Source: an uncultured Methanosarcinales archaeon (GTDB lineage: Archaea; Nanobdellota; Nanobdellia; Woesearchaeales; UBA583). From it: a stretch of DNA of 64,000 nt. How positions within the stretch are numbered: the first letter of the stretch is position 1; each line of letters opens with the position of its first letter. The notes below the pieces were generated by a model that was not told the origin of the DNA, made no database searches, and was given only the letters and a program-made list of their open reading frames with translations. This document shows positions 1,400 through 49,898 of this stretch, in pieces. A program made the translations under genes and the position numbers. The stretch is taken from positions 11,082-75,081 of the forward strand of contig CAZULG010000001.1 in NCBI GenBank assembly GCA_964621065.1. Reading direction: 5' to 3'.

Positions 1400-2211
1400 A
1401 TGAAACTTGCTATAATTAATGATATTCATTATGGAGATGAAAGAATTGATAATGGAGTTGTTAGAAAATTTAGTAAACAAACTGATACCCTAGTTTCTAA
1501 TTTTATCGATGATATGAATTCAAATATAAAACCTGAATTTATAATTATTCTTGGAGATTTAATAGAGTCAAAAAATCATAAAATAGATGTAAAAAATTTA
1601 AATTACATTAAATCAAAATTAGAAAATAATCTTAATTCTAATCTTTTTTATTGTATTGGAAATCATGAACAAAGAACATTAAAAAAAGAAGAAGTAAACA
1701 CAATTCTAAATTTAAAAAATCAATATTATTCATTTGATAACGAAGAATTACATTTTATTATTTTATATTCAATTGAAGTTAATTCCAAAAATTTTAAAGA
1801 TTCTTACAATTATATTGATGATAAGCAAATTAAATAGCTCAAGGAAGATTTACAAAATACAACTAAAAAAACAATTATATTTGTACATCACTCTTTAGCT
1901 GATCAAAATTTAGAGAGAAACCCTTATTTTAGTAATAGAGAGAATAATTGTCTAATTAAAAATAGAGAAGAAATTAGAAGAATTATAGAACAATCAAATA
2001 AGGTGGTTTGTATATATTTAATAGTCACATTCACTGGAATAACATTAATTATAATAACAACATTCCCTACATCACATTGCAATCGTTAGTTGAAAATGAG
2101 GAAAATAAAGGAATTCCTGCAGGCACATACACAATTGTAATTATTAAAAATAATGAGATAAATGTAGATATTAAAGGAAATTTTCCTCAAAAATATATAT
2201 TTAATATTTAA
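1400..2211 (+). pseudogene. Calcineurin-like metallophosphoesterase disrupted by an in-frame TAG (1835-1837) and a frameshift near 2000-2020
   Basis: Motifs in order: IHYGDE (DxH), ILGDLIE (GD), IGNHEQ (GNHE), then after the TAG the same frame continues LKEDLQNTTKKTIIFVHHSLAD... The GHxH-type motif FNSHIHW appears only after a shift to frame 1 (ORF 2008..2211). Confidence 0.5.
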
Positions 2212-2339
2212 AAAATATAATTTATGCTAACTATTATTAATCAAAAATAATATATATAATTGTTAAAAGTAATTAGCATTTATTTAAATATTTGCTTTTT
2301 TCCCATAAATTTTTGAGTGATATTTTTTAAACATAACAT

Positions 2340-2850
2340 AAACTAGCTATTTTTGATTAATATATTTAATAAAAATATAAAATTACGAACTATGATTTTT
2401 GATAGTTATTTTTAAGTTATTTTTTATAACTAGAAACGAAATTCAATTCACATCTTTAATTATGTAATTTAAAAAATTCTATTTTGATAGTTATTTTTAA
2501 AAAAAATATGAATAATAAATATCACATATTATTGTAATTACTAGTAATATTTAGATTTATTAGAATTAAATAAAATTAATTTTGATAGTTATTTTTAATA
2601 TAAAAAACAGATGAAAGATTATATATTCTTATAATTGACAATAGTTTTTAGAACAGTAAAATATTAAATAAAATTATTTTGATAAATATATTTAAAAAAT
2701 TAAAGCTTAAAATTAGTTAGCATAATTACAAATATTTTGAAAAAAATAATAATCAAAAATTATAATTAATGCTAATTATTTATTCTTATAAAGTTTTATA
2801 AGATAGCGATATAAATTTCACACTTTTTATCTCCTAATTTTGATAGAAAT
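2340..2850. repeat. Iteron-like direct repeats in a 680-bp non-coding AT-rich region
   Basis: Perfect 19-mer TTTTGATAGTTATTTTTAA at 2397-2415, 2482-2500 and 2580-2598. Degenerate copies near 2351, 2676 and 2838. Spacing is 85-98 bp. Inverted ATGCTAA/TTAGCAT motifs flank the block at ~2224/2273 and ~2716/2769. Confidence 0.55.
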
Positions 2851-2891
2851 TACAAAAAATTAAATAGATTAAGAATTTATTCATAAAAAGT

Positions 2892-3260
2892 ATGATGATC
2901 TTCAATATAGTATTTATTGTAACATTTATTATAACAAGATTACTAACATACTCTCTACACGATAAAAAAGATTATAATTCTAATACAATCACTGAGTACA
3001 TTAGAAAAAAAAGCAATTTTGAATTTCACCATATACATATAGGAATTTTATTGTTAGTAGTATTGACTATATTTACTCAATTCCTTCAAATTAATGAAAT
3101 TATTTATTACCTACTTCTAGCAATTTCTCTTTCTTTAATTGTAGATCAATTATTTCCCCTATTAAAAATATGTTGTTATTTTTCAAAATATTCATTAATT
3201 GCAGCAGTTGTACTTCACATATCAGTATTAATTATATTTAATGGCACACATTATTTCTAA
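2892..3260 (+). CDS. Hypothetical small membrane protein
   Basis: ORF with 3-4 predicted hydrophobic helices; no recognisable motif. Confidence 0.3.
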   Translation: MMIFNIVFIVTFIITRLLTYSLHDKKDYNSNTITEYIRKKSNFEFHHIHIGILLLVVLTIFTQFLQINEIIYYLLLAISLSLIVDQLFPLLKICCYFSKYSLIAAVVLHISVLIIFNGTHYF

Positions 3261-3439
3261 AAATCCTCAAAACACCCAAATTTAGCACTTCTGAGAACAA
3301 AAAGAAATGAAAACTAATATGAGAGAACTTTTTTATTTTTGTATACAAAAATACATTAAAAATCCTTAAAATTGGCTTAAATATTATTATTTTTAACTAT
3401 AAAAGTTCGTATAATATACATTATACGAACCATATTACA

Positions 3440-3811
3440 TCACCTTAGATATAAGCACAAGTAAAGAGAAAAAACAACCAAATATAATAAAATTATAAAT
3501 ATTGAACTAGAAATTTTAAATTTTTTATACTTAATTTCTATGATATATTTCTTCAAGATATTGGCTCCTAGGTATTCTCCTATTGTTCCAATAAGTGTAA
3601 CAAGAAGAATTGTGATAATGCTTGGAAAAATAATTAATTGAATTATTAAACTACTTATTGAAGTATTATTAATAATTTCAGTTGATATTAATATGACTAG
3701 AAACAGCAATAGTAATCTCACAGCTATTTTTTGAAGGAGTGTTTTCCTAATTGGTCGTTTATCATATTTATGTTTATATTTTTTAAATTTAATTGAAAAA
3801 TCTTTCATCAT
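3440..3811 (-). CDS. Hypothetical small membrane protein
   Basis: Lys-rich N-terminus followed by three hydrophobic helices. Confidence 0.3.
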   Translation of the reverse strand: MMKDFSIKFKKYKHKYDKRPIRKTLLQKIAVRLLLLFLVILISTEIINNTSISSLIIQLIIFPSIITILLVTLIGTIGEYLGANILKKYIIEIKYKKFKISSSIFIILLYLVVFSLYLCLYLR

Positions 3812-4096
3812 TTTATTATGTATTCAATATTTGATAAATCTAATGTTTTGATATATAATTTAGTACTAAAAGTGTGAATTTATTAGAACATATAATAAAA
3901 TTAATAATTGTCATCTTTGTTAGTAATATTTAAGCATAATGTGGCAAAACAATTACTATAATTAAATAGCATTGACAGAAATTTTTTAGCAATAACTATA
4001 CTTGATTTTTATATAAATATTAGTTTTTGACAATAATATTTAAGAAAATACTAATAAATTATTTGTTTGATTTTTTCTATCATTGCTAAATATAAT

Positions 4097-4500
4097 TAAT
4101 CTTTTTCAAATAAAATATATTCTATCATATCTTCTGTAATTGTTTCATCAATTCCTGCTTCAAGTGGAGAAATGATAGGACAATTTATCCATGGATTCAT
4201 CCATCCTTCTTTAATTCTTGTTAAGTAATGTCCATAAGGATATTTATTGGAAGATTTAATAAAGATAATCGTTCTAGGTTTTTTAAGTATTTTTGATACT
4301 TATTTGAATATTTTCTAAATGAATAATTATTTTTGTCATACAATTTAAGTAATTTTTTTAACTCAGGCATATAAAATCCAACTTCAAGAGCATCTTGAGG
4401 ATTTTTTGCATTTACTAAGAACATTATTATATGAATCTCCTACTACTGATGCAACACAAGCAATCCCACAGCCCATATTATGTCTTTGTTTTACAATCAT
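4097..4500 (-). pseudogene. Peptidase C39-like (papain-fold cysteine peptidase) gene broken into three reading frames
   Basis: Frame a from ATG at 4500 gives MIVKQRHNMGCGIACVASVVGDSYNNV (C39 catalytic Cys motif) then stops. Frame b is ORF 4221..4424. Frame c continues ...KYPYGHYLTRIKEGWMNPW...EAGIDET... to a stop at ~4097 (His region). The a/b junction lies in an A6 homopolymer. Confidence 0.35.
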
Positions 4501-4952
4501 AAAAAGTGTGAAAGTTATTTCTCTTTAACTATTTTTGTTACTGTTAAAACATAATTTTTATTAATTTAAATTTTTGTAAATTGTAATTTTTGATTAATAT
4601 TTTTTATCTAATTGTGATTGAATATTATTATCAAAATTAAAATATTATGTATTCACAGAAACAATTATTTTAATATTGAGAAAAATGTTATATCGAATTA
4701 TTAAATAAAATCTCTCAATTAAAAGTGTGAAAATTATTTCTCAATTGAATAAGAAATAATGAGTTTTTGATTGAAAATAACAAACAACGATGATTATTTT
4801 GATATTAAGTTTAATGAGAATCAAGATATTAATTTATAGAATAGTTAAAAGATAGTATTTTTAATAAAAAGTTATTATCAATAACCATAAAAAATCATAA
4901 AAAGTAGATAAAATCACGATAACTATATAAGTCCAGAAAACATACTACAAAT

Positions 4953-5870: not shown

Positions 5871-6053
5871 ATGAAACATCAACAAATTGAAGAAACTATT
5901 TTTCAAACACTAGTAATTTTAATAATGGTCATAATTTTTGGAGTTATAGGTTTTCTATTAGAGTATGTATGGTCACAATTTTTATTTTATGTTTTGGCTT
6001 TAACATTAATTTATTACTCTGGAAAGTTGATAATTATTAAACAAAATCTTTAG
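5871..6053 (+). CDS. Hypothetical 2-TM miniprotein
   Basis: ORF with two hydrophobic helices. Confidence 0.2.
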   Translation: MKHQQIEETIFQTLVILIMVIIFGVIGFLLEYVWSQFLFYVLALTLIYYSGKLIIIKQNL

Positions 6054-6129
6054 CAAAATAATGAATAGTTCCTAGATACTTTATTAATTTTAAGATTCAA
6101 AAAATTTTACTTTTATATTATTATTATTT

Positions 6130-7776
6130 TTATTTTTTGCTTACATATTTTGATTTGATATTATGTTGATCATCATAGTCAGTTCTTCCTTTCACTTGAG
6201 CCTTCAAATCATCTAAATTAGCTTCTTTTAAAGCAGTTAATGTGTAAAATTCAGTTTGTAATCCTTTCATCAAACTCCAACACATAACCACCAAAATTAA
6301 ACTAAATGGAATTGCCATTGTAATAACTGCAGTTTGAAGTGCAATTAATCCTCCTCCTATAAGTAATACAGCAGCTGTGAGTCCTTGCAAAATTGACCAA
6401 AATGCTCGTTGAGATTTTACTGAATATCCTTTTCCTCCTGAAGTTATGAGATCTATTACATATGAACCTGAATCTGAAGAAGTGACAAAAAATGTAATAA
6501 TTAAAATAACAGCTAAAAAACTAATTATCTCACCAAAAGGAAGTTGTTCAAGTAGTAAAAACATAGACATTGAAACATCTTCTTGAATGATTGAGGTGAT
6601 TTGTGCATTATCTCCAAGTAGATTAATTGCTGCATTTCCAAATATACTAAACCATAAAAATGTAAGAATTGCAGGTACAAATAATACTCCTCCTATAAAT
6701 TCTTTAATAGTTCTTCCTTTTGAAATTCTCGCAATAAACATTCCAACATACGGAGCCCATGAAATCCACCATGCCCAGTAGAACAGTGTCCACCCACTAA
6801 GCCACGTACTATCTATTGAAAATGTTTTCACAAGCGATAAATCAATAAAATCTTTAATATATACACCTGTGTTTAAAATAAATTGTGATAAAATATGTAG
6901 TGTTGGACCAAACACAAGCACGTAAATGAGTAAAAATGCACCTAATGCCATATTTATAATACTGAACCACTTAATTCCTTTTTTGACGCCTGAGACTACT
7001 GAGAATGTAGCAAGTGATGTAATGAGCAGAATTAATGATATTTTACTCGCAATACTGTCTTCTATACCAAATAAATAATTTAATCCAGTATTAATTTGAA
7101 TAACTCCAAGACCTAGCGAAGTTGCAACTCCAAAGAGCGTTGAGACAACTGCAAAAATATCTATTGCATGTCCTGGCCAACGGTAAACCCTATCTTTTAA
7201 TAATGGATAAAATGTGAAGCGAAACGAAAAAGGAAGTTCTCTTCTAAATCCAACATATGCTAGAGATAATCCTACAATTACATATGTTGCCCAAGCGTGT
7301 AACCCCCAATTTAAATATGTGTATTTCATCGCAATTGACTGATTTGAATCACCATCTACAACAGGAGGTTCTACATAATGCATCACAGGTTCTGCCACAC
7401 CATAAAACAAAATTCCAATTCCCATCCCCGCACTAAAGAGCATTGAGAGCCAAGTAATGTAGCTATATTCAGGTTTTGAATAATCTCCTCCAAGTTTTAT
7501 GACTCCAAATTTACTAAAATACAAATAAATAACAAGAACTAGAAATATTGTCATTGAAAAAATAATCAACCAATTAAATTGAATAATTATAAATTGATTT
7601 AATTCCAGTACAACTTTTTCAAATTGTTTAGAAAAGAAAAAACCAATAAATGCAAGAGAGAGTATGATAAATGCAGAAGTGAAAAATACGGGTGTATTAA
7701 TATGTTGTTCAATATAGTTTGAAATTGACTGTTTCATATCAGAATCCATTGAATATATAGAAAAATATAAATTCAA
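6130..7776 (-). CDS. BCCT family betaine/carnitine/choline transporter
   Basis: 12 TM helices and the BCCT signature GWTLFYWAWWISWAPYVGMFIARISKGRTIKEFI. Confidence 0.8.
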   Translation of the reverse strand: MNLYFSIYSMDSDMKQSISNYIEQHINTPVFFTSAFIILSLAFIGFFFSKQFEKVVLELNQFIIIQFNWLIIFSMTIFLVLVIYLYFSKFGVIKLGGDYSKPEYSYITWLSMLFSAGMGIGILFYGVAEPVMHYVEPPVVDGDSNQSIAMKYTYLNWGLHAWATYVIVGLSLAYVGFRRELPFSFRFTFYPLLKDRVYRWPGHAIDIFAVVSTLFGVATSLGLGVIQINTGLNYLFGIEDSIASKISLILLITSLATFSVVSGVKKGIKWFSIINMALGAFLLIYVLVFGPTLHILSQFILNTGVYIKDFIDLSLVKTFSIDSTWLSGWTLFYWAWWISWAPYVGMFIARISKGRTIKEFIGGVLFVPAILTFLWFSIFGNAAINLLGDNAQITSIIQEDVSMSMFLLLEQLPFGEIISFLAVILIITFFVTSSDSGSYVIDLITSGGKGYSVKSQRAFWSILQGLTAAVLLIGGGLIALQTAVITMAIPFSLILVVMCWSLMKGLQTEFYTLTALKEANLDDLKAQVKGRTDYDDQHNIKSKYVSKK

Positions 7777-7875
7777 TTTATAAATAATAAGAACTATGAG
7801 TAAGTGATATTCTCTATCAAATTATAGAGTTAATTATGTACAAAGTATATATTTAGAGAAAATCAATCTGAAAAA

Positions 7876-8529
7876 TTAATCATTTAAAAAATCTAAATTT
7901 ACTGAACAACTTGAGCCTGTGACACATGAACCATCCCCTTGGCTATCTCCTACATACCCTTCTGGAATTCTCTCTTTGCAAATGTTTGAGTCAATACATG
8001 CCTTATTAGTTACATTGTTAATATAGAATTCTTCTTCCTCTTGTGTATAGTCACCAACTAATATGAGGATTTGGTCTAAATCTTGAGCTATATACTTTTC
8101 ATATTCTTCATTTTCTTCTCCATTGACAAACATATTTATTGAACTTTGATTATTCTCACAATAAGATTTGTTCTCATCTGTAACAAAGCAACTCTCATTA
8201 AATTTCATATCTAAAGATGTGAAAAACTCTTCAAGACTTATATTTTCTTTATGAAAGTGTATCACATCACCATTTCCATCATGTAGATGCACATAACCAT
8301 GTTTGTTAGAGTGAAGACCACTCATATATTTATCTTGCGAAAAATTGAGAACTGTTCCATTGACAACAACTAAAAAATCTGCGTGTGTGTGAAATTCATC
8401 TGAGCTATGATCTGTTGGTTGATGAGTTGAATGTGCTGAAGTTGGATTAATATTTGAATATAGAGCAACACTCACACCAAGTGTAATAATTGCAATAATG
8501 AGTAAATATAATAGATAATTTCTATTCAT
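7876..8529 (-). CDS. Hypothetical membrane-anchored secreted protein, His-rich
   Basis: N-terminal TM/signal anchor, then HSTHQPTDHSSDEFHTHADF and HGYVHLHDGNGDVIHFH clusters and a Cys-rich acidic C-terminus. Confidence 0.35.
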   Translation of the reverse strand: MNRNYLLYLLIIAIITLGVSVALYSNINPTSAHSTHQPTDHSSDEFHTHADFLVVVNGTVLNFSQDKYMSGLHSNKHGYVHLHDGNGDVIHFHKENISLEEFFTSLDMKFNESCFVTDENKSYCENNQSSINMFVNGEENEEYEKYIAQDLDQILILVGDYTQEEEEFYINNVTNKACIDSNICKERIPEGYVGDSQGDGSCVTGSSCSVNLDFLND

Positions 8530-8563
8530 ATATTATAAAATATTGAAGATTTTATAAATATAG

Positions 8564-8977
8564 TTATTTTTTATTCATCAATTCTTTTAAATTTACAATA
8601 AAATCAATAACATTGTTTGGATCCAACTTCTCTTTATTATATTGAGAAAAAACTAAACTATTGTCATTATTATCTCTTCCAATTCTCATTATAATTTTTC
8701 CATTTATTCCATTTTTTAATTTGGCAACTGGTAATCCCAAAGAGTTTAATTTAGTTCCACTAGTTTCATCTGGATTTATATCTCTACTGCCATCTAATTT
8801 TAAAATTTTAAATTTTCTATGAGGTATTAAATGAGGTCTTCCTTGAAACAAAATTAGTATTAATTCATCTGATAAATTTTTAAATTCATCATTTAATATT
8901 TTGATAAATGATTTTTCGTTTTCAAAATTTCCTAATTTATAATAAATTTCACTATTAGAATCGAATACCTTAATCAT
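8564..8977 (-). CDS. Hypothetical protein
   Basis: ORF only. Confidence 0.3.
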   Translation of the reverse strand: MIKVFDSNSEIYYKLGNFENEKSFIKILNDEFKNLSDELILILFQGRPHLIPHRKFKILKLDGSRDINPDETSGTKLNSLGLPVAKLKNGINGKIIMRIGRDNNDNSLVFSQYNKEKLDPNNVIDFIVNLKELMNKK

Positions 8978-10396: not shown

Positions 10397-11608
10397 TTAT
10401 CCTCTATGAAGCATTTGATCAACAATTTCTAAACTTTCAAAAAAATAATCAATTTCATCAATTGTATTATACATCGCAAAACTCACACGCAGTGTTGATT
10501 GAACTCCTAAAACTTCTAAAAGTGGTTGAGCGCAATGTGCTCCTTCACGAAGTGCAATTCCTCTCATATCCAAAAGCGTTGCTACGTCATAACAGTTGTA
10601 ATTTTTATACGTAAATGCAAAAATTGGACCTTTTTTTGAACTATTTGTTGTTCCATATAATTGTAATCCCTCAACTGTGTGTGCTTTTTTGAAAAAATGT
10701 TCAATAAGTTGTTGTTCATGATTTTGAATAGATTTCAAATTAGCTCCTTCAATAAATTCAATTGCTTTTGAAAATGCTATTGCTCCACAAATATCAGGTG
10801 TTCCTGCTTCAAATTTATGATAATTCGTTTGATATGTTGATTGATTAAACGTGACTTCTTCAATCATTCCTCCTCCATATTCATAAGGTTTCATAGTTTT
10901 GATGAACTTTTCTTGTGCAATAATTGCACCAACTCCTGTTGGACCATAACATTTATGCGCTGAGAAAGTAAGTGCGTGACATCCAAGTGTTTTAAAATCA
11001 ATTTGCTCATGTCCAACAATTTGCGCAGCATCATAAAATAAATACGCGTCTTCATAGTAACGTGCAACTTGTTTAATTTTTTGTGTATTTAATTTTTCTC
11101 CCAACACATTTGAAATCAATGGGAGTGCTATAATTTTTGTTTTCTCACTCACTAAGTTTTCAAATGCAATATAGTCAAATTCTTGTGTTTGAGTTAATGG
11201 AACAATTTTAAGTACTGCTCCTGTGTGTTTTGCAAGTTCTTGGTATACTACAAAATTACTATGATGCTCAACACATGATACAATAATTTCATCTCCTGGC
11301 TTAATTGTATGTTCAATTCCTCTCGCTAACATATTAATCCCATTTGTTGTTCCTCGTGTAAATATACACTCGCTGAGTTTTACTTGAAAGTGCTCAGCAA
11401 TTGTTGCTCTTGCGTTTTCAAAAAGAGTTGTTGCTTGCTGTGATAAAAAGTGTGCACCACGATGAACATTTGAATTTTGTGTTGAGTAATATTTAACAAT
11501 TGAGTTAATAACACTTTGTGGAGTTTGTGATGTTGCACCATTATCAAAGTAGACAAGTTGATTGCCATTGACTTTTTTAGTTAAAATAGGAAATTCATTT
11601 CTAAACAT
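10397..11608 (-). CDS. Cysteine desulfurase (class V aminotransferase, SufS/NifS-like)
   Basis: FDNGATSQTPQSVI, NVHRGAHFLS and the PLP-lysine region SFSAHKCYGPTGVGAI. Confidence 0.8.
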   Translation of the reverse strand: MFRNEFPILTKKVNGNQLVYFDNGATSQTPQSVINSIVKYYSTQNSNVHRGAHFLSQQATTLFENARATIAEHFQVKLSECIFTRGTTNGINMLARGIEHTIKPGDEIIVSCVEHHSNFVVYQELAKHTGAVLKIVPLTQTQEFDYIAFENLVSEKTKIIALPLISNVLGEKLNTQKIKQVARYYEDAYLFYDAAQIVGHEQIDFKTLGCHALTFSAHKCYGPTGVGAIIAQEKFIKTMKPYEYGGGMIEEVTFNQSTYQTNYHKFEAGTPDICGAIAFSKAIEFIEGANLKSIQNHEQQLIEHFFKKAHTVEGLQLYGTTNSSKKGPIFAFTYKNYNCYDVATLLDMRGIALREGAHCAQPLLEVLGVQSTLRVSFAMYNTIDEIDYFFESLEIVDQMLHRG

Positions 11609-18588: not shown

Positions 18589-19915
18589 TCTTTACTCTAA
18601 TTTCTCCTCTCATTAATTTTGGAAGTAAAACATCCCTTGTATTTTGAAGATATTGAATTTCATTTAAGTTATCAATATAATTATTAAAAAAATTTGAATA
18701 TATCTTTTCAAATTCAATTAGTGTATTTTTATTAGAAATCAAAAGAGAGATATTTTCTATTTCAGTAGAACTGATATTTGGTTGTGCTGAACCAATTGCT
18801 TTGTCTCTTATTTTTTTCAAATATTCATTGGAGTTGAAAACAATATATGAGTATAATAATCCATAATCAAAAATTTGTTTAAACATTCCTACTCGTTGAT
18901 TTAATAATAGTTTATAATTTGATTTTTGAACAACTCCTATTTTCCCTATTTCTGCACCAGTCATTGCAATTAAAATATCTTTTTCTTTAATTATAAATTT
19001 TGAATCTAAGTTTTGAATTGAATTATCATCAATAAATCCAGAATCTGTTAGGTTTACAATTCCTCCTGAAATATTTTTTATTTTGATTAATCTACTCTTA
19101 CTATATTTAACAAAATCTTTACTCTTAAATGCATAACCACTCTGGATTTTTACTAATTCTCCTAATCTTCCGGCTCTCCATCCCTTTGGAATTTCTTTTC
19201 CTAATTCTTCACAAAACACCATTTCTCCTCCATTTGATTTATATTCTTCTCCATTTTCATTTGGAAATTCAAAATCAACAAACCACCTTTTAAAAAGTGT
19301 TTTTCCCATCTCTTCAAGTGTTTGATTAATGTGTTTATTCATTTCAATTTTTGAGTCTAAATCACTTAAGATTTTCGCAATAGATTTTTGTTCTTCAATG
19401 GTTGGAGGGAGAGGAATATTGACTTTTTCTAAAATACTAACATATAAGTTTTTTTGAACACTTCCAACTGCCTTTGATTTTAGTTCTTCTCGAATCAATT
19501 TCAAAAAATTTAATATATATTTAGTTTGATTTTTATCAATTGGATTAATATTAATGATTGCTCTGTTTCCACACATAAAATCCTTCAAAACTCCTAATTT
19601 TCCAATTGTCCCAGACTTACTTATTGCAATAGACTCAGGTTCAAACAACTTAGCACTCTTGCCTGCACTTTTGAAACCTTCTTTAGAAAGCTTTCTACTT
19701 GTGTCATAGATAAAAGTATCATTTAAATCATTAACTCTTAACCATTTAATTTCATCACCAAAAAAATTTGGATTCGTTTGAGAAGGATTTACATATCCTT
19801 CTTGGAATTTACAAAGTTCTCCTAACTCCTTAACTTCCCAATCATGAGGGATTTTTCCAATTTCAGTATCTTTAAATTCTGTTTCTTTGTAAGTGTTCAT
19901 TTTAAAATCCTCCAA
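18581..19915 (-). CDS. hsdS: Type I restriction-modification specificity subunit HsdS
   Basis: Two target-recognition halves, each followed by a conserved helical spacer (HINQTLEEMGKTLFKRWFVDFEFP; NTRDVLLPKLMRGEI). Confidence 0.8.
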   Translation of the reverse strand: MEDFKMNTYKETEFKDTEIGKIPHDWEVKELGELCKFQEGYVNPSQTNPNFFGDEIKWLRVNDLNDTFIYDTSRKLSKEGFKSAGKSAKLFEPESIAISKSGTIGKLGVLKDFMCGNRAIININPIDKNQTKYILNFLKLIREELKSKAVGSVQKNLYVSILEKVNIPLPPTIEEQKSIAKILSDLDSKIEMNKHINQTLEEMGKTLFKRWFVDFEFPNENGEEYKSNGGEMVFCEELGKEIPKGWRAGRLGELVKIQSGYAFKSKDFVKYSKSRLIKIKNISGGIVNLTDSGFIDDNSIQNLDSKFIIKEKDILIAMTGAEIGKIGVVQKSNYKLLLNQRVGMFKQIFDYGLLYSYIVFNSNEYLKKIRDKAIGSAQPNISSTEIENISLLISNKNTLIEFEKIYSNFFNNYIDNLNEIQYLQNTRDVLLPKLMRGEIRVKNE

Positions 19916-21363
19916 TATCCAGCTTTTGTTGAACCTTCTCGCTTAATTATTCCTCTATCAACTAATTGCTTCAAATTATATTTAATCCCATCTTCAGATA
20001 TTTTCTCAATTATTAAAGAAAGTTCTTTTCTTGTAATTTTAGGATTTTTCTTAATTTCAAGTACTATTTTTTTCTGAATATCACTTAATATTTCTTGGGT
20101 AGTTTCTTGGGTAGTTTCTTGGGTAGTTTCTTGGGTAGTTTCTAGGTCTTTTTCTAGGTCTTTTAATCCCTCATCTTCTTTAGTAGTACTTAAAAAAAAC
20201 TCAATAGTGTAATTATCAATATCATTTCTAACAACAGGCTCTTGTTTATACAAACTCAACCAACCATTAAACATTTTATCAAATCCATATCCAGCATTTT
20301 CAGCTAAATCAACAACTCTAAATATTTTAGTAATAATGGGATTTCTAGGAAGAGAAATATCACAACTCCTTAAAATTTCATATGGTTTTGGTAAAGAACC
20401 AGGGTTAAAAAATTCAAATCTATTTGAAAACACTCTAATTCTAGGCTTCATTGGTGAAAAATAATCACTATGAATTAACAAATTAACTAAAGCTTCTCTA
20501 ATTGCTTTAACCTGTGGTTGATTCTCAACTCTATGAGGTCCACTCATTTCAAAAGGAACATCAATTTTTTTAATAATCCTCTCATAAATAGCAAAAAAAT
20601 ATTCAAACAAATTTGAATGTTGTGAAAGTCTAAACTCATATCTACGAAGAGAATCACTATAACTTGTTCCCATAATTTCTAAATAATCAACTCTAAAATC
20701 AACAAAATATCTAGAAATTGAATCTTCACTTCCAAAAACTAATAAACCTCCCAATGTAACATGTAAATTTTCATCTAAAACTCTAAGTTTAGTTAAAAAA
20801 TCAATATCATTTAAAGTATTATATTGATGTTCAGGTTTTAGATTTAATAAATATTGACGAAACCTTGAAATTGTCTCTTTATTCAAATCATCAATTCTTA
20901 AATTTGTAATCTCTCTATCCTTAGTCCCATAAGATGAATTTCTATACAAAGAATCAATTTCTTCTTGAGTTAATCTCTGATCTCCTGAACCAGTTCTAAT
21001 AAATGTATTTTTTAAAGAATTAAAATAAATAGGTTTCTTTTCAGCTATTGGAATATAAAAACCTAATACAATGTTATCTTCAAATTCCCATTTTTCACAT
21101 TTTGGAATTATTTTTTGATTAAATTTACCAACTCTTAGAGCAGTTGTAAAATCTTGTTCAATTTTTTCAGGATGTTTAACTCCAGTAATTTCAAAATTTT
21201 TACCTTTTTCACTCACTCCAAAAATTAGCCAACCACCCGAAGTATTTGAAAATGCTGAAACAGTTTCCCAAGAAGATTTAGGAATTGAAGAATCACAAGT
21301 TTTAAACTCCAAATCCTCCCATTCAATCCCTTCTAGATGTTTAACTAATTCCTCTTTTTTCAT
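19897..21363 (-). CDS. AlbA_2/Schlafen-like ATPase-type DNA-binding regulator (COG2865-like)
   Basis: N-terminal DLEFKTCDSSIPKSSWETVSAFSNTSGGWLIFGV (AlbA_2 domain), and a C-terminal HTH-like ITRKELSLIIEKISEDGIKYNLKQLVDRGIIKR; it sits between hsdM and hsdS. Confidence 0.55.
   Translation of the reverse strand: MKKEELVKHLEGIEWEDLEFKTCDSSIPKSSWETVSAFSNTSGGWLIFGVSEKGKNFEITGVKHPEKIEQDFTTALRVGKFNQKIIPKCEKWEFEDNIVLGFYIPIAEKKPIYFNSLKNTFIRTGSGDQRLTQEEIDSLYRNSSYGTKDREITNLRIDDLNKETISRFRQYLLNLKPEHQYNTLNDIDFLTKLRVLDENLHVTLGGLLVFGSEDSISRYFVDFRVDYLEIMGTSYSDSLRRYEFRLSQHSNLFEYFFAIYERIIKKIDVPFEMSGPHRVENQPQVKAIREALVNLLIHSDYFSPMKPRIRVFSNRFEFFNPGSLPKPYEILRSCDISLPRNPIITKIFRVVDLAENAGYGFDKMFNGWLSLYKQEPVVRNDIDNYTIEFFLSTTKEDEGLKDLEKDLETTQETTQETTQETTQEILSDIQKKIVLEIKKNPKITRKELSLIIEKISEDGIKYNLKQLVDRGIIKREGSTKAGYWRILK
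20091..20162. repeat. In-frame 12-nt tandem repeat inside the regulator gene
   Basis: TTTCTTGGGTAG x4 (20091-20138) then TTTCTAGGTCTT x2 (20139-20162); on the coding strand this encodes (TTQE)x4 preceded by (KDLE)x2. Confidence 0.9.
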
Positions 21364-30390: not shown

Positions 30391-30439
30391 ACGCTTTTAT
30401 AGTAATTCAAATTTTATAAACTTACTTGTAGCAAAATTA

Positions 30440-30821
30440 AGAAGTATTCTAGCAACTTCGTTGCTAGTATTAATTCAAGCTGCGAAGCAGCTTAGTCTAC
30501 GAATAATAATATACTTCCTCAGAAGTTATCACTTCCGAACCTTGTGAAAGGAGACATTCACTTTGTTCAATCTCCTGATTATTTTCAAGCTCCTAAGTTC
30601 AAGCTGCGAAGCAGCTTAGTCTACGAATAATAATATTCTACGGATTGTCTCTGCTCATTGTCTTTAACAGAGTGCTTCTTATTAATTCTCGGTCGTTTTG
30701 TATGTTCTTCTCATCCAGCTTTTTTTACACCGTTCGTTTTCAACTCACTCAAAAAAAGTTGTGCAAAAAAACTGCTCTCGCTACACTCAAGCCCCTAAGT
30801 TCAAGCAACGAAGTTGCTTAA
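30440..30821. repeat. Tandemly reiterated hairpin units downstream of ABCE1, including a duplicated copy of the ABCE1 3' coding end
   Basis: Hairpins with GAA/TTC triloops at 30450-30466, 30477-30493, 30601-30617 and 30804-30818. Segment 30474-30512 is near-identical to 30598-30636. Segment 30624-30712 is ~95% identical to the true ABCE1 end 30824-30913. Confidence 0.6.
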
Positions 30822-32576
30822 CTAAGAATAATAATATTCTCCGGATTGTCTCTGCTCATTGTCTTTAACAGAATGCTTCTTATTAATTCTCGGTCGTTTT
30901 GTATGCTCTTCACGCCTAAACGTAATATCAACTCCTTTTAAGAAATGATTCATCCCATCTCGCATCCCACTAGGAGAGTTAGCAACTCCTCTAATACTTG
31001 GCTCTCCATCAAATACCATCAATCTGTGTGACAAATAATCCATAAAAATTAAGTCATGATCAATCACAAAACACGCTTTCTCTTTAAGTTCAATAAAATT
31101 TTTAATCACTTTTGCAACCACAAGTCTATCCTCTACGTCTAAAAACGCAGTTGGTTCATCAAGTAAATACACCTGAGCGTCTTCCAATAAACACCGAGCA
31201 ATAGCAAAACGCTGTAACTCTCCCCCTGATAATTCATTAATTTGTTTCTCCTCTAAATTGTGGATTTTTAACGGGTCTAACACATACAATTTATAGAACG
31301 AATCAGTATAATTATTCATCGCACCCAGAACAGACATCACTAAATCATCTTGCTTCTCAATTAACTGCTCTTTATATGAAATCACTTTCCCATCAAGACC
31401 AACTTCATTAACATGCTTCATAAATGTTGATTTTCCAAGAGCATTTCTACCAATAATTCCAATAATCTCTCCTTTTGAAATATGACCTGCTTGAATCTCA
31501 ACTTGAAAATCTCCTCGCTTAACAATTTCTTGAGGCCAACTTACATATGCAGATCTTACTTGCTCATCTAACACACTCTCTTTATTAAACGAAATTGGTT
31601 TATCTCGAAACTGAATATTCTCATCTTTTGAGTACCCTTCTAAATACTCATTCATTCCCTGACGCGCATTTTTAATATTTGTCAACTTTCCATATACACT
31701 TGGCTGACCATACATTAAATGAATATTATCAATTAAAAAATCTAAAATTACCAAATCGTGCTCAACCACTAACGCTGATTTTTCGCCAACTACTTCTTTA
31801 ATAATTTGAGCAGTATTCAATCGCTCATACACATCCAAATAGTTTGTCACTTCATCTAATACATAAAAATTTGCATTCTCTTTCAATAAACACGCACAAA
31901 TTGCAACACGTTGCAGTTCTCCTCCAGACAAGTGTGAAATGTCACGCTCAAGTATTTGCTCAACATTTAAACTCTTCGCTCGCGCTTTAACTTTTTCTTC
32001 GTTACTCTCAACTCTGTGTAGTAAATTTTTTACAACTCCTTTAAATTTTTGAGGAATTTGAATGATTTGTTGTGGTTTAAACGCAACTGTAATATCTTGG
32101 TGCTGCAAAGATGTGAAATATTGTTGCATAATTGTTCCTTTATATTGACCAATAAGTGCTTTAAAATACTCTTCTTTTGTCTCATATGTATTTTCAACAT
32201 CTCCAAAATTTGCTTGAATAAGACCTGCTAAAATTGAAATCACTGTTGACTTTCCAATTCCATTTTTCCCCAAAATACCAACAATTTTGCCATCTTCAAC
32301 ATAAGGTAGATTAAACACACGAAACCCATTTTTACCATATTGATGAATAGGAGGAGTTTTATCTTCATCGGGTAAATTAATAATTGAAATCGCATGAGGG
32401 GCAGCTTTGACGCAAATCCCACACCCTATACATAATACTTCATCAATTAAAAGCTTCTCTCCTTCAAAATACATACAATCAGCTCCTCTACGATTTACAG
32501 GGCAGAGTGATTGAATATGTTTTTTTTCACTCATAACTTTTAATTTTTCATTATTTATAACAGCAAGTCTTGGCAT
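30822..32576 (-). CDS. abcE1: ABCE1 / RNase L inhibitor ribosome-recycling ATPase
   Basis: N-terminal 4Fe-4S cluster motifs (CPVNRRGADC...CIGCGICVKAAP) and two ABC ATPase domains (GKNGIGKST; LSGGELQRV x2). Confidence 0.9.
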   Translation of the reverse strand: MPRLAVINNEKLKVMSEKKHIQSLCPVNRRGADCMYFEGEKLLIDEVLCIGCGICVKAAPHAISIINLPDEDKTPPIHQYGKNGFRVFNLPYVEDGKIVGILGKNGIGKSTVISILAGLIQANFGDVENTYETKEEYFKALIGQYKGTIMQQYFTSLQHQDITVAFKPQQIIQIPQKFKGVVKNLLHRVESNEEKVKARAKSLNVEQILERDISHLSGGELQRVAICACLLKENANFYVLDEVTNYLDVYERLNTAQIIKEVVGEKSALVVEHDLVILDFLIDNIHLMYGQPSVYGKLTNIKNARQGMNEYLEGYSKDENIQFRDKPISFNKESVLDEQVRSAYVSWPQEIVKRGDFQVEIQAGHISKGEIIGIIGRNALGKSTFMKHVNEVGLDGKVISYKEQLIEKQDDLVMSVLGAMNNYTDSFYKLYVLDPLKIHNLEEKQINELSGGELQRFAIARCLLEDAQVYLLDEPTAFLDVEDRLVVAKVIKNFIELKEKACFVIDHDLIFMDYLSHRLMVFDGEPSIRGVANSPSGMRDGMNHFLKGVDITFRREEHTKRPRINKKHSVKDNEQRQSGEYYYS

Positions 32577-44354: not shown

Positions 44355-45689
44355 CTATCCAACACACAAATCTTCTTTTAATATTTCAAGAACTTCTTTA
44401 TGCATTGATTTAGGCAAACCTATTGAAATATATCGCGTTCTTCCATATCGTCCTTTGGAAACAACTTTTTCATTCACAATTCCTAAAACATCTAATTCGA
44501 CAACAATATCAGAAATTCTCCTCAATGTTAAAGATTGTATTCTCAAATCTTTTGTCAACTTATTATAAAAGTCAAACACTGAACCTGTTGTTGTTGGCTC
44601 AATCACTTGAGATTTTTTATTAGTAACTAAGTTATGCTTTTCTTTCATAGAGGTTTTAACAATTGAATATAATACCAATTGATAATGTTTTGGTTGTGAT
44701 TTAATAATGTCAATGATTCTATTTTTCTCACTCTTTTTATCAGCTTTATCAATATGGAGTGGAACAACATATGCACTCCCTTCTCGCTCTGCAATCTCGC
44801 CTGCATACTTTAATAATTCAAGTGCACGTCTTACATCTCCATGTTCTCTTGCCATGTATGCTGAGCATCGTGGAATAACTTCACTATCTAACACATTTTC
44901 TCTAAATGCTAAGTGTGCTCTATCGTTTAAAATATCTTGAATTTGTGTTGCATTATATGGTACAAATACGAGCTCTTCTTCGTTCAATGACGACTTAACA
45001 CGAGCATCCACACTATCCATAACAGTTAAATCATTTGTAATCCCAACTAAACACACTTCTGAACTTTTTAAATCAGGATTCAAACGAGTTAAATTATATA
45101 ACACATCGTCTCCTGCCTTTTTAATAAGAGCGTCTATTTCATCAAGAACTAAAATAATTGTTTGCTTCTCACTATCAAGTGCACGATATAAATCTTTATA
45201 TAACTCATTTGTAGAGTGACCGGTGTCTTTTCTCTCAACTCCAAACATTTTTAATATTTCAAGAAGCATTCTGTATTCAGTATCAGCCACTCGCTTTAAT
45301 TTGCAATTAATATTTAAGATTTTAAGAGGAATTTCTCGAGAATTTGCAACATTTCTCATTTTATTAAGCACATGATTGATACATAATGTTTTTCCTGTTC
45401 CTGTTTTTCCATATACAAATACATTAGAAGGTTTTTCATTTCTCAACGCAGGTGCGAGCATTTTCGCTAACTCATTTAAATATTCACTTCTGTGTTGAAT
45501 TCTTGGAGGCTGAAAATTAGACTGCAGAATTGATTTATCTTTAAAAATTGGTTTTGATGACATAAATTCCTCAAAATAATTATCCAGATCATCTTTAATT
45601 TCTTCTTGAATATTTGTATTTTTTTCATCAATATATGTGTTAGAAAAAGTTGTCAAGTCACTTGATTGTTCCATAAGAAATATAAACAT
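44355..45689 (-). CDS. orc1: Orc1/Cdc6 replication initiator
   Basis: AAA+ Walker A VFVYGKTGTGKT, Walker B ILVLDEIDAL, sensor motifs and a C-terminal winged helix. Confidence 0.85.
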   Translation of the reverse strand: MFIFLMEQSSDLTTFSNTYIDEKNTNIQEEIKDDLDNYFEEFMSSKPIFKDKSILQSNFQPPRIQHRSEYLNELAKMLAPALRNEKPSNVFVYGKTGTGKTLCINHVLNKMRNVANSREIPLKILNINCKLKRVADTEYRMLLEILKMFGVERKDTGHSTNELYKDLYRALDSEKQTIILVLDEIDALIKKAGDDVLYNLTRLNPDLKSSEVCLVGITNDLTVMDSVDARVKSSLNEEELVFVPYNATQIQDILNDRAHLAFRENVLDSEVIPRCSAYMAREHGDVRRALELLKYAGEIAEREGSAYVVPLHIDKADKKSEKNRIIDIIKSQPKHYQLVLYSIVKTSMKEKHNLVTNKKSQVIEPTTTGSVFDFYNKLTKDLRIQSLTLRRISDIVVELDVLGIVNEKVVSKGRYGRTRYISIGLPKSMHKEVLEILKEDLCVG

Positions 45690-45859
45690 TTCTACTGTTT
45701 ATAAAACTTTCTTGTTTCATTTAATTGTATCAAAAATGATTATAACTAATAGTTATTATTTTACAATTTTGTATATAAAAATTCAGATGTTTTTAATAAT
45801 GAGTGTTTTAACTTGACAACAGATGAAAATACTTATAAAATAATAAATCTATATATTTT

Positions 45860-47439: not shown

Positions 47440-47591
47440 CAGCTTTTCAAAAAAACAAGGTCGCTCTTTTCAATCGTTCGTTGTATTAATCTTAAGATGA
47501 ATATTTGTGCAAAAAAATTGTTTTCGCTAAGCTCAAACTCCTAATTCTAGTAGCGAAACTACTAATATCTACTTCAAGTAACGAAGTTACT
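47440..47591. repeat. Conserved 3'-flanking element shared with the ABCE1 downstream region (30711-30820)
   Basis: ...CGTTCGTT...TTGTGCAAAAAAAYTGYTYTCGCTA..CTCAA.C.CCTAA.TTC...AGYAACGAAGTTRCT is shared; the terminal hairpin 47577-47591 spans the DP2 stop codon; a second hairpin TAGTAGCGAAACTACTA lies at ~47550-47566. Confidence 0.5.
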
Positions 47592-49854
47592 TTCCAAAAT
47601 AATCTCCAAGTCCTTTTTGTTTCTCAAGCTCCTTTCCAAATACTCCTTCCATTCTCAAATTTACAAGTTCTAAACTCTCAACAATGTATGGATCAACTCG
47701 AAAATCTTTTGTGATTTTAAATGATGGAGCTAAATATTTTTTAATTGAACCTTCATGAATTGTGAAATTAATAGAAGTTGAATAACAATTAGAACATCTC
47801 CCATTCAATGGAGGCCTTCTGTAAATAGTATTACAACTTGTACATCGAAAACTCTGCATTCCAAATTTTCTCAAATTTCCTTTAATGTCTTTCATAAAAT
47901 GCTTATCAATCACTAGCTCTCCCACTTTATTCTCATCAACAGCTCGAATTTTTCGCCCAATTTCTAATTGTTCTGATAATTTTTCTGCCATTGAAGGAAG
48001 TGTTTTATATGAAGAACACAAAATCGTATCATTCATATCATCAGTATCATGCGTAAAAAAATATCCTAAATATTCCTCATCTTTAATTTCTTTCCCTATT
48101 CTATTCTCAACATGCTCAATTTTTACACTTTTAGGAGGAGCGTATTCTCTACAAGCTTTATAAAAATTAAGAGGATAAAATGGAACAATATCCATCCCAT
48201 GAACCTCATCATCAATCTGATCCAAATACAAATGAGAAGTTAATACTAATGATACATCCATTGTCTTAGAACCTCTTCTATTTGGTAAAAATTCACGTGA
48301 CCCGTTTAATAACCCATCTAATAAAAGCATCACTCCGTTCTCATCTCCATCTAAATTACGCCTCTGAGCAGCGTGCCAAACAGGGTGAGAAAAACAACCT
48401 TGAGATTTTGAATATCCAATAATTCTCCCCGTAATACCTGCAGAAGTATGAGGAGCAAGCCCAATTATTATATGCCCAATTGTATCTTCTTTTGATTTAA
48501 AATTATAGTATGGTTGTTCTAAATAAATTTTCTCAAGCAACTCATCAATGAATTGTCCTGTTTTTACAATAATATCACTTGCTTTTTCTTCAAACCCTTC
48601 ATCACAATCAGGAAGTATAACATCTTGAGGAAAAATTTCAACAATTTGATTCTCATCTGTAAGTTCCTCTCCTTTGTAATCATGTGTGTATCCCATCTCT
48701 TTGAGTTTATCAATTGATGTTAAAATTTCTTTTGGCTTAAAGTGCGTAATTCCCATCTCAATCATATCATATCGAATCGTACCATCTTTATTGACATACA
48801 AATCATACTTCTCTCTCAAAAACGCTTTTTCTAAAATTTCAATTGATTTATGCTCATTTGCAGTTCCACGGATTCCTTTCACTATTTTAGGAAGTTGAGT
48901 AAGTTTCAAATTCTCTCTCACTTGTTTAATATAAGGCTCTAAATCTAAAGACATACGTTTGTATTGAACTGCTAATTCATCCTCTTTATTTACTCGAGCA
49001 CCTGTGTATCTATTAAAATATTGAGGAGTACATACTCCTCCACAATATACACATTTTGGATATACACATTCCTCCCCGCAACTCTGACACTCCATTAATC
49101 GAAATTCTCCACTGACCTCACCACCTTCATACGCCTCAATAATATTTCTCATTCGATTTTGTATAACATCTGAGCTGATTTCATCATCTCCAAATCGTCT
49201 TTCAATTTGAACTGACTTACCATTTCCAATTGTAAATAATCCTTGTGGACGACCATCTAGTTTTCTCAATTTTGCCTTCTCAGGACGCCCCATTCTTGCA
49301 CCAATATATGTTCCTGCTTTATCACGAATCTCAATTGATGAATACACATTAATAATTTCAAGCATGGACTTATTCAAATGTTCTCTACATAATTGCTCAA
49401 TATTTGAAAAGTGTGATATATATTTCTCAACTAATGATTGACTTTTAATTTCTCTCTCATCCTTAACATCAATCCACTCTAAAATACCACAATTAGATAT
49501 AAAAGCTAGAAATGAGTTGTCTTGAAACAAAATGGTATCAACTCCCTCTTCTTTTCCCATCCATTTGTGCTCAATTCCTAAATGCTCAAATTTATCTTTA
49601 TTACGTGTTTTAATTCCAAATAACTTTAACTCCTTATCAACATACAAATTTTGAAGTTCTCCAAACACATCAACCCCACGTTGAGGACTTAACTCATTAA
49701 AATAAAAAATATAGTGTGGATGCAGGGATACATCAAATTTTTGTGAGAGCATAATTGCATCCTTTAAAGATGGTTTAGAATAGAGAGGATTAGAAACATA
49801 CTGCTCGTATTTACTTTTGAGCGTTGAATTCAAAATGTAAAAAGAAAAATCCAT
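47587..49854 (-). CDS. DNA polymerase II (PolD) large subunit DP2, central and C-terminal portion only
   Basis: IGARMGRPEKAKLRKL, zinc fingers CQSCGEECVYPKCVYCGG and CTSCNTIYRRPPLNGRCSNC, catalytic region GLAPHTSAGITGRIIG...AAQRRNLDGDENGVMLLLDGLLN. At 755 aa it is far shorter than canonical DP2, and a stop codon lies 2 codons upstream of the ATG. Confidence 0.85.
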   Translation of the reverse strand: MDFSFYILNSTLKSKYEQYVSNPLYSKPSLKDAIMLSQKFDVSLHPHYIFYFNELSPQRGVDVFGELQNLYVDKELKLFGIKTRNKDKFEHLGIEHKWMGKEEGVDTILFQDNSFLAFISNCGILEWIDVKDEREIKSQSLVEKYISHFSNIEQLCREHLNKSMLEIINVYSSIEIRDKAGTYIGARMGRPEKAKLRKLDGRPQGLFTIGNGKSVQIERRFGDDEISSDVIQNRMRNIIEAYEGGEVSGEFRLMECQSCGEECVYPKCVYCGGVCTPQYFNRYTGARVNKEDELAVQYKRMSLDLEPYIKQVRENLKLTQLPKIVKGIRGTANEHKSIEILEKAFLREKYDLYVNKDGTIRYDMIEMGITHFKPKEILTSIDKLKEMGYTHDYKGEELTDENQIVEIFPQDVILPDCDEGFEEKASDIIVKTGQFIDELLEKIYLEQPYYNFKSKEDTIGHIIIGLAPHTSAGITGRIIGYSKSQGCFSHPVWHAAQRRNLDGDENGVMLLLDGLLNGSREFLPNRRGSKTMDVSLVLTSHLYLDQIDDEVHGMDIVPFYPLNFYKACREYAPPKSVKIEHVENRIGKEIKDEEYLGYFFTHDTDDMNDTILCSSYKTLPSMAEKLSEQLEIGRKIRAVDENKVGELVIDKHFMKDIKGNLRKFGMQSFRCTSCNTIYRRPPLNGRCSNCYSTSINFTIHEGSIKKYLAPSFKITKDFRVDPYIVESLELVNLRMEGVFGKELEKQKGLGDYFGK

Positions 49855-49898
49855 ACTCTACACAAATAAAAAAGACTATATAAAAATATCGTATCTGT

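Follow-up and report, generated by a model that had tools for sequence, protein, structure and literature searches.

Archaeal regulators of the Lrp type bind cooperatively to clusters of imperfect, regularly spaced sites, with wrapping of the DNA (PMC2995911). Ptr2, for instance, acts through a pair of regularly spaced sites ahead of its target promoters, and the boxes of Lrp/FFRP-type proteins in general (Ss-LrpB, Ptr2, FL11) lie just upstream of the transcription factor B recognition element (BRE) and the TATA box or overlap them (PMC2995911). Such boxes are 13-15-bp palindromes, placed 2-3 helical turns apart and two to four to a promoter. Here we analyze a repeat array in a 64,000-nucleotide stretch of archaeal DNA (contig CAZULG010000001.1; hereafter the window), in which imperfect, regularly spaced boxes likewise sit just upstream of promoter-like elements. 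Unlike Lrp-type sites, these boxes are about 25 bp long and asymmetric, are spaced by at least 45 bp, number 10-14 per locus and keep one chromosomal orientation; nor is there an Lrp-like gene near the locus.

Clustered repeats also occur at archaeal replication origins (oriC), where origin recognition boxes (ORB and mini-ORB) lie by the orc1/cdc6 gene. In Pyrococcus the ORB clusters extend over 5 kb (PMC1904270), and the repeats of some proven Haloferax origins depart from the ORB consensus (PMC1868953). The present locus resembles oriC in its long AT-rich gap, its roughly ten repeats, some of them inverted, and its position at the least stable DNA of the window. It differs in having neither an ORB sequence nor an adjacent initiator gene, in that genes converge on it, and in having repeats that are interspersed with genes and linked to promoter cores.

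An earlier, sequence-only reading of the window had offered an origin or an array of regulator sites. The regulator half of this proposal has gained from the conserved, locus-restricted boxes found upstream of promoter-like elements in seven genomes, whereas the origin half has failed the tests specific to it. The reading that we favor, with a probability of about 0.55, is an array to which a regulator binds cooperatively and through which it controls the genes of two membrane proteins and of a papain-like protease. We describe it as a phased, putative protein-binding repeat array coupled to putative promoters, in a lineage without characterized cis-elements. For DPANN archaea, a group that has not been cultivated or grows only in co-culture, we know of no experimental work on signals for replication or cis-regulation.

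Conserved boxes confined to one locus

Relatives were collected through orthologues of a flanking gene and of a downstream 122-aa protein (TM122). This gave the locus in six further genomes, and thus seven loci with the window: L007, from an NCBI metagenome-assembled genome (MAG), L008-L013 (Logan assemblies of one genome), L014, L001, L017 and L023. The relatives are DPANN contigs (Nanoarchaeota/Pacearchaeota-like). The best relative of the flanking gene comes from a 'Nanoarchaeota archaeon' MAG (75% identity), and the annotation of a homologue of a 135-141-aa protein encoded at the locus reads 'Candidatus Pacearchaeota archaeon'; the window therefore comes from a DPANN archaeon too. Along the locus, genes and gaps follow one another as metallophosphoesterase, gap A, TM122 (+), a palindrome, TM123 (-), gap B, protease (-), gap C and BCCT transporter. 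This synteny recurs in relatives whose flanking protein is 60-75% identical.

Gap A, or control region A (Table 1), is where the repeats were first noticed. The sequence-only reading had called it the longest gap in the window without an open reading frame (ORF), and at 680 bp and 13.5% GC it is indeed both the longest and the AT-richest. At the 100-, 300- and 600-bp scales no other duplex in the 64 kb is less stable, and regions B and C rank with it in the five least stable segments. The three perfect 19-mers TTTTGATAGTTATTTTTAA are present as described, on the + strand (2397-2415, 2482-2500 and 2580-2598; spacing 85 and 98 bp), and degenerate copies lie at 2677 (three mismatches), 2351 and 2311 (four each) and 2838 (five). 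When up to three mismatches are allowed, TTTTGATAGTTATTTTTAA has four matches in the window against 0.8 expected, a number reached in none of 100 shuffles. Part of this uniformity is local. A 97-bp tandem repeat (75% identity) carries the second and third copies as well as the degenerate one at 2677, and the perfect identity of the copies is therefore partly the result of recent local duplication.

The 19-mers belong to a wider family, an asymmetric box of about 25 nt with the consensus tA-TTTTTG[A/C]TAAnAATaTTTAA[T/G]CA. Its G is invariant in all 38 instances, and it keeps a conserved TTG.TAA...TTTAA frame. The inverted ATGCTAA/TTAGCAT pairs that had been noted at both edges of the gap (2224-2231 with 2274-2280, and 2716-2722 with 2769-2775) are a TTGCTAA-type variant of the same family. 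The feature itself reaches well past position 2890, through two further intergenic gaps, to about 4640.

We trained a position weight matrix for the box on three relatives only (L007, L010 and L014), leaving the window out. At a threshold of at least 9 bits the matrix finds 11 sites in the window, all within 2219-4639 and none in the other 61 kb, whereas Markov shuffles yield 2.0 sites per whole window and 0.14 per 2219-4639 segment. At a threshold of at least 11 bits, 72 boxes fall within the 17,067 bp of the seven loci, compared with none in 90,219 bp of flanks on the same contigs, which are equally AT-rich. Loci that took no part in the training score as well as the others (window 10, L001 7, L017 10 and L023 10 boxes at this threshold). 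The motif is thus conserved across species, as a model derived from three genomes finds the boxes in the other four. In 240 kb of unrelated control DNA there were four box matches, all on viral contigs that had been picked for the exact 19-mer.

The boxes, 10-14 per locus, are spread across three consecutive intergenic gaps of one conserved 2.7-kb locus, and their distances are not arbitrary. Across the seven loci, 18 gaps between adjacent boxes measure 44-46 bp. Eight +/- pairs stand 30-32 bp apart, each followed by an interval of 57-61 bp (a 30+60 bp pattern), and in region B of the window the spacing is 55, 55 and 56 bp. The boxes of gap A occupy orthologous positions among the relatives. 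The sequence between boxes can be aligned between genomes, yet it is unconserved between distant relatives. A motif that is statistically over-represented and confined to intergenic control regions is what an array of transcription factor sites would present.

No boxes accompany the distant TM122 homologues (38-43% identity; L015, L016 and L018-L022), which makes the array a trait of a narrow clade and not of the TM122 gene as such. Look-ups of proteins from the window by exact sequence gave no match. A scan of genome contigs with TM122 returned one contig, L001, and a metagenome scan with TM122 peptide patterns returned nothing. The metagenome scan with the promoter pattern AGAAARGAANNNNNNTTCACACYTTT produced 24 single chance matches, all without boxes, and served as a negative control. 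As for L001 (SKJH01000101.1), the record is titled as a 'Bacilli bacterium' MAG, although it holds the same DPANN locus, with TM122, TM123, the peptidase, the BCCT transporter and 7-8 boxes; the contig has probably been mis-binned.

Coupling of the boxes to a putative promoter element

Every genome has a second conserved element, located downstream of each cluster of boxes, which is bipartite and reads TAGAAAAGAA-N6-TTCACACTTTT or TTTAAAGAGAA-N6/7-TTCACACTTT (here called the TTCACAC element). Exact AAAGTGTGAA (TTCACACTTT on the opposite strand) occurs four times in the window, each time inside the locus. The seven loci contain 27 TTCACAC elements, 25 of them with a box within 110 nt upstream. 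In 17 of the 27 the center of the nearest box lies 49-68 nt upstream of the predicted transcription start, a distance at which a 25-bp box would abut the BRE/TATA region. The boxes thus keep a fixed position relative to what we infer to be core promoters.

The promoter status of the element is suggested by its placement. In ordinary genes of the genome TTTATAAAAT begins about 29-32 nt before the ATG, from which their transcripts appear to be leaderless. In five genomes the protease gene has TTTAAAGAGA, starting 28 nt ahead of the TTCACAC element's end, then TTCACACTTT(T/C) and, within 0-1 nt, the ATG. Judged from this TATA/ATG geometry, TTCACACTTT would occupy about -12 to -2 of a well-formed promoter. 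Since the TTCACAC element stands between a well-placed TATA and a leaderless start in this gene, it looks like a specialized promoter. The TTCACAC core is also found 60-95 nt upstream of TM122 and TM123, and there are orphan copies. A sigma-70 promoter scan, whose model is irrelevant for an archaeon, stayed at chance level.

In L017 the association of box and core has been multiplied. A cassette consisting of a box and then TTAGAAAAGAAAAnAAnTTCACACTTTT occurs four times in 2.8 kb (5929-8772), and three of the copies hardly differ from one another. One cassette stands before an antitoxin/ParE pair, one before a DEAD-box helicase, one before an antisense position and one before TM122. One of the four is directed into the 3' end of a convergent DUF2196 gene. 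No box-plus-core cassette is present in the remaining 5.9 kb of this contig. The copies fit a portable regulatory cassette that has spread to other genes in this one relative.

Under the regulatory reading, the box would be the recognition site of a sequence-specific DNA-binding protein. Phased runs of boxes (at 45 bp, at 55 bp, or as +/- pairs at 30+60 bp) would each end just upstream of a specialized promoter in which 6-7 bases separate a TATA of weak or atypical form (TAGAAAAGAA or TTTAAAGAGA) from TTCACACTTTT, with the predicted transcription start 1-2 bases past TTCACACTTTT. The protein would first bind cooperatively along the array. The proximal box, centered at about -50 to -65, would then bring it to abut the BRE/TATA, and in that position the bound protein could govern the recruitment of TBP, TFB and RNA polymerase. 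The TTCACAC core between TATA and start may form a second control point, either as an operator or as an initiator-like element. The controlled genes would be those of the two small membrane proteins and of the stand-alone papain-like protease and, in one relative, also the ParE toxin-antitoxin pair and the DEAD-box helicase. Binding of a protein to the boxes, activity of the TTCACAC promoters and the direction of regulation are all proposed here from sequence patterns.

A number of observations weigh against this proposal. The orientation of the boxes tracks the chromosome and not the promoters: 58 of the 72 (80%) share one chromosomal orientation, even beside a promoter on the opposite strand, which a simple activator model does not predict. 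The box matrix is only weakly palindromic (self-complementary). In alignments of close pairs of genomes, column identity is only slightly higher in boxes than in spacers (0.91 versus 0.84, and 0.98 versus 0.89). Distant pairs show no such difference, in alignments that are unreliable for DNA this AT-rich. The TATA-like partner scores poorly in TTCACAC elements of the TM122 type, and some elements have no ORF downstream (window 2447 and 4721; L017 8207). No candidate regulator gene lies in or beside the locus in any of the seven contigs; a search of the gaps for a conserved small ORF, as a possible hidden regulator, also found none. Finally, archaeal control regions typically have far fewer sites than the 10-14 that would serve three to five small genes here over 2.7 kb, and a 45-bp period (about 4.3 helical turns) differs from the 2-3 turns of Lrp-type sites.

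If the array is regulatory, it represents an unusually large, phased and polar cluster of sites for an archaeon, and the cluster of membrane-protein and papain-like protease genes may work at the surface of the cell or in conflicts with other cells. The locus supplies a defined, conserved 25-bp box and a companion promoter signature, TAGAAAAGAA-N6-TTCACACTTTT. Both could be synthesized to find the binding protein among those encoded by MAGs, or used to read metatranscriptomes.

Alternative readings of the array

A more novel alternative assigns the array to chromosome maintenance in this Pacearchaeota-like DPANN clade, through a protein outside the Orc1-ORB system. The array could then be a non-ORB origin away from cdc6, a polar fork barrier or terminus, or a centromere, and the TTCACAC promoters would be accessory. 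We consider this rather unlikely. An origin, terminus or centromere here would be the first such element defined in DPANN archaea, and independent of the ORB paradigm.

Taken as a chromosomal origin, the boxes would be non-canonical sites of an initiator (Orc1/Cdc6 or another protein) placed around easily melted DNA, and the embedded promoters would assist opening. The length, AT-richness and low duplex stability of region A, with B and C close behind, are what such a role would call for, and 10-14 repeats over 1-3 kb, including some inverted pairs, match archaeal origins in number and layout. Moreover, each genome has, as far as visible, one such locus in a stable position. This support is generic: the inverted TTGCTAA-type pairs do lie at the least stable DNA, but the majority of the boxes are directly repeated, and promoters would be expected to be just as AT-rich. 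The box shares nothing with the ORB consensus GTTCCAGTGGAAAC...GGGGG or with the invariant TTCC/GAA cores (PMC1868953, PMC1904270). A scan of the window for ORB-like TTCCANTGGAAA gave 44 occurrences against 41.6 expected, with no cluster in the locus.

No initiator or replication gene adjoins the locus in the seven contigs (the flanks of the relatives being 2-9 kb). In the window (28% GC) the Cdc6/Orc1 gene lies at 44355-45689, 42 kb away as had already been pointed out, and the large subunit of PolD is encoded at 47587-50807. In favor of the origin reading, the 170-bp gap beside cdc6 has no repeat cluster, so the origin is not obviously there. The genes to the right of the locus are almost all on the - strand (over 5-33 kb) and those to the left mostly on the + strand; they converge, the opposite of the usual pattern at an origin. 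GC skew, which the sequence-only reading had proposed as a check, mirrors the coding strand without an independent switch, whether taken by window or by gene. With 2-9 kb available on the left, skew and gene orientation make a weak test. Last, an origin would leave unexplained both the fixed distance between box and promoter and the duplication of the cassette before unrelated genes in L017. On balance, an origin is unlikely.

Two observations concern the replication genes themselves. The gap upstream of cdc6 is bracketed by a 10-bp perfect inverted repeat, GTTGTCAAGT/ACTTGACAAC (45632-45837). The PolD large subunit (47587-50807) is present as two ORFs of 755 and 302 aa.

A maintenance site of another kind, such as a centromere-like partition site, a polar fork barrier or terminus, or a nucleation site for a silencing chromatin protein, seems to us quite improbable. 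The fork barrier, terminus and centromere variants are suggested by the single polarity of the boxes in combination with the convergent orientation of the genes. Asymmetric boxes that point one way in 80% of cases, whatever the direction of the genes, behave as polar barrier sites do, and the genes do converge on the locus. The embedded genes are decaying in two genomes (the window and L010), which would fit a value of the locus outside those genes. The tandem runs with a 45-bp period come close to sopC of the F plasmid, which consists of twelve 43-bp units. On the other hand, the runs here are short (2-4 units), no ParA/ParB/SegAB-like or Tus/RTP-like gene lies nearby, and we know of no fork barrier or sop-type centromere on an archaeal chromosome. 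The fixed geometry with the promoter cores is again left unexplained.

Direct repeats of about 20 bp with a fixed period are also typical of plasmid iteron origins and of sopC-type centromeres. In contrast to these systems, the array has a chromosomal, syntenic and non-mobile setting, with its units in runs of 2-4. Pfam and NCBIfam scans of the neighbors revealed no rep or par gene near the locus, and blastn of the locus against plasmids and phages returned nothing. Five 19-mer matches were seen on viral contigs, four of them within apparent coding sequence (three in one virus), and were dismissed as chance; neither the TM122 alignment nor the palindrome had a match among the viral contigs. 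With no rep or par gene, no plasmid or phage hit and viral matches of this kind, an origin of a mobile element was excluded.

It is very doubtful that the boxes are evolutionary debris, that is, tandem duplications in a decaying region under low constraint and without sequence-specific function. The 97-bp tandem duplication does account for two of the three perfect copies, flanking genes are pseudogenes, and the box columns are barely more conserved than the spacers in pairwise alignments. However, the motif persists in seven genomes whose flanking proteins share no more than 58-75% identity and is absent from the 90 kb of equally AT-rich flanks. The boxes of gap A are in orthologous positions as well, and neutral AT-rich DNA would have lost the motif. 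This conservation across genomes largely refutes the debris explanation.

That the boxes are repeated segments of a cluster of small non-coding RNA genes, or of a structured RNA, is hardly credible. In its favor, the box has a TATA-like right half (AATATTTAA), and in the 45-bp runs the conserved T-A in front of the next box falls about 27 nt further on, at the expected start of a transcript; TTCACACTTTT terminates in oligo-T, the archaeal termination signal, and the minus strand of region A folds at z = -2.5. Against it, Rfam gave no match, whether at the gathering threshold or at E <= 1, the excess of folding at 13.5% GC is modest (z = -1.5 and -2.5) and comes from inverted box pairs, and the inter-box sequence is not maintained between distant relatives. 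A tRNA scan found nothing. A CRISPR array (clustered regularly interspaced short palindromic repeats), with its short repeats and unrelated intervening sequence of similar length, had been rejected from the outset, and rightly so: the repeats are degenerate within the array, their spacing varies from 45 to 98 bp, the genomes have conserved 'spacers' in common, the box is linked to promoters and the window contains no cas genes.

Genes of the locus and other features of the window

The features of the locus are listed in Table 1. Neither TM122 nor TM123 could be assigned to a family by Pfam and NCBIfam scans. The palindrome between them is kept in all relatives (L007 ~10677-10702, L010 ~1931-1956, L014 ~4287-4312). 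Its 4-nt center reads ATAC in the window and L014 and is the reverse complement, GTAT, in L007 and L010, as if flipped. It could be either a bidirectional terminator hairpin or a protein-binding palindrome.

Table 1. Features of the repeat locus, in window coordinates. Scores in bits refer to the box matrix; promoter cores and control regions are predictions.
Feature	Position	Strand	Remarks
Control region A	2212..2891	.	ORF-free, from the metallophosphoesterase pseudogene to the 122-aa membrane-protein gene
Box, TTGCTAA-type, AATTTATGCTAACTATTATTAATCA	2219..2243	+	12.8 bits; includes the left ATGCTAAC of the sequence-only reading
Box, TATTTTTGATTAATATATTTAATAA	2348..2372	+	17.2 bits
Box with perfect 19-mer copy 1	2394..2418	+	12.1 bits; orthologous boxes in L007, L010 and L014
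Putative promoter core, degenerate, TTCACATCTTT	2447..2457	+	Box center 50 nt upstream
Box with perfect 19-mer copy 2	2479..2503	+	Only 3.4 bits against the family model
97-bp tandem repeat	2480..2699	+	2.3 copies
Box with perfect 19-mer copy 3	2577..2601	+	15.5 bits
Degenerate box	2674..2698	+	8.2 bits; 19-mer with 3 mismatches at 2677-2695
Inverted TTGCTAA-type box	2704..2728	-	9.3 bits; includes the right-hand TTAGCAT noted earlier
Putative promoter core TTCACACTTTT ahead of the 122-aa gene	2817..2827	+	TATA-like TTTATAAGAT begins 33 nt before the core end
TM122, 122-aa membrane-protein gene	2892..3260	+	Sole gene present at all seven loci
Perfect palindrome GTTCGTATAAT-ATAC-ATTATACGAAC	3405..3430	.	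26 nt (11+4+11); between convergent TM122 and TM123
TM123, 123-aa membrane-protein gene	3440..3811	-	In 6 of 7 loci
Putative promoter core TTCACACTTTT upstream of TM123	3868..3878	-	
Control region B, four boxes	3912..4102	+	Boxes from 3912, 3967, 4022 and 4078; 17.6, 20.4, 22.5 and 14.9 bits
Decayed gene of predicted papain-like cysteine peptidase	4080..4500	-	Three ORF fragments; gene of a 135-141-aa protein
Putative promoter core TTCACACTTTT abutting the peptidase-gene ATG	4502..4512	-	TATA-like sequence begins 28 nt upstream
Control region C, convergent box pair	4585..4639	+ and -	4585-4609 (+, 13.5 bits) and 4615-4639 (-, 19.7 bits)
Orphan duplicate of the peptidase-type core	4721..4731	-	25 nt, 92% identical to 4499-4523; no ORF after it

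The 135-141-aa protein belongs to a very small family, with only ten sequences among 5.8 billion, and has conserved Gln, Cys and His residues and a GWMNPW motif. Its AlphaFold model (pLDDT, the predicted local distance difference test score, of 87.6) was compared by Foldseek, which matched it to the C39 peptidase domains of ComA and PCAT1 and to papain-like toxins of contact-dependent growth inhibition systems (template modeling score ~0.6, probability 1.0). These matches lead us to predict a stand-alone papain-like or C39-like cysteine peptidase.

Several genes of the locus are damaged. The metallophosphoesterase gene of the window (1400-2211) is a pseudogene, in which a conserved Trp codon has changed from TGG to TAG (1835-1837) and the frame shifts near 2000; the orthologues in the relatives are intact (269-271 aa). 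In L010, TM122 is split into two ORFs (1418-1794) and the peptidase gene (2768-3082) has an in-frame TGA where all others have TGG (Trp). The split TM122 and the TGA of L010, together with the pseudogenes of the window, suggest that the genes of this locus decay repeatedly while the box array persists.

Two further repeat-containing segments were seen in the window away from the locus. At 30391-30911, an ABC-ATPase gene (30822-32576) has its 3' end, together with a GC-rich hairpin, AAGCTGCGAAGCAGCTT, duplicated in direct repeats of 124 and 201 bp (96-98% identical); the 431-bp gap in which they lie has an unusually high GC content (36%). At 20079-20158, a 12-nt tandem repeat, TTTCTTGGGTAG, is present in about five copies inside an ORF (19897-21363) of a type I restriction-modification cluster.

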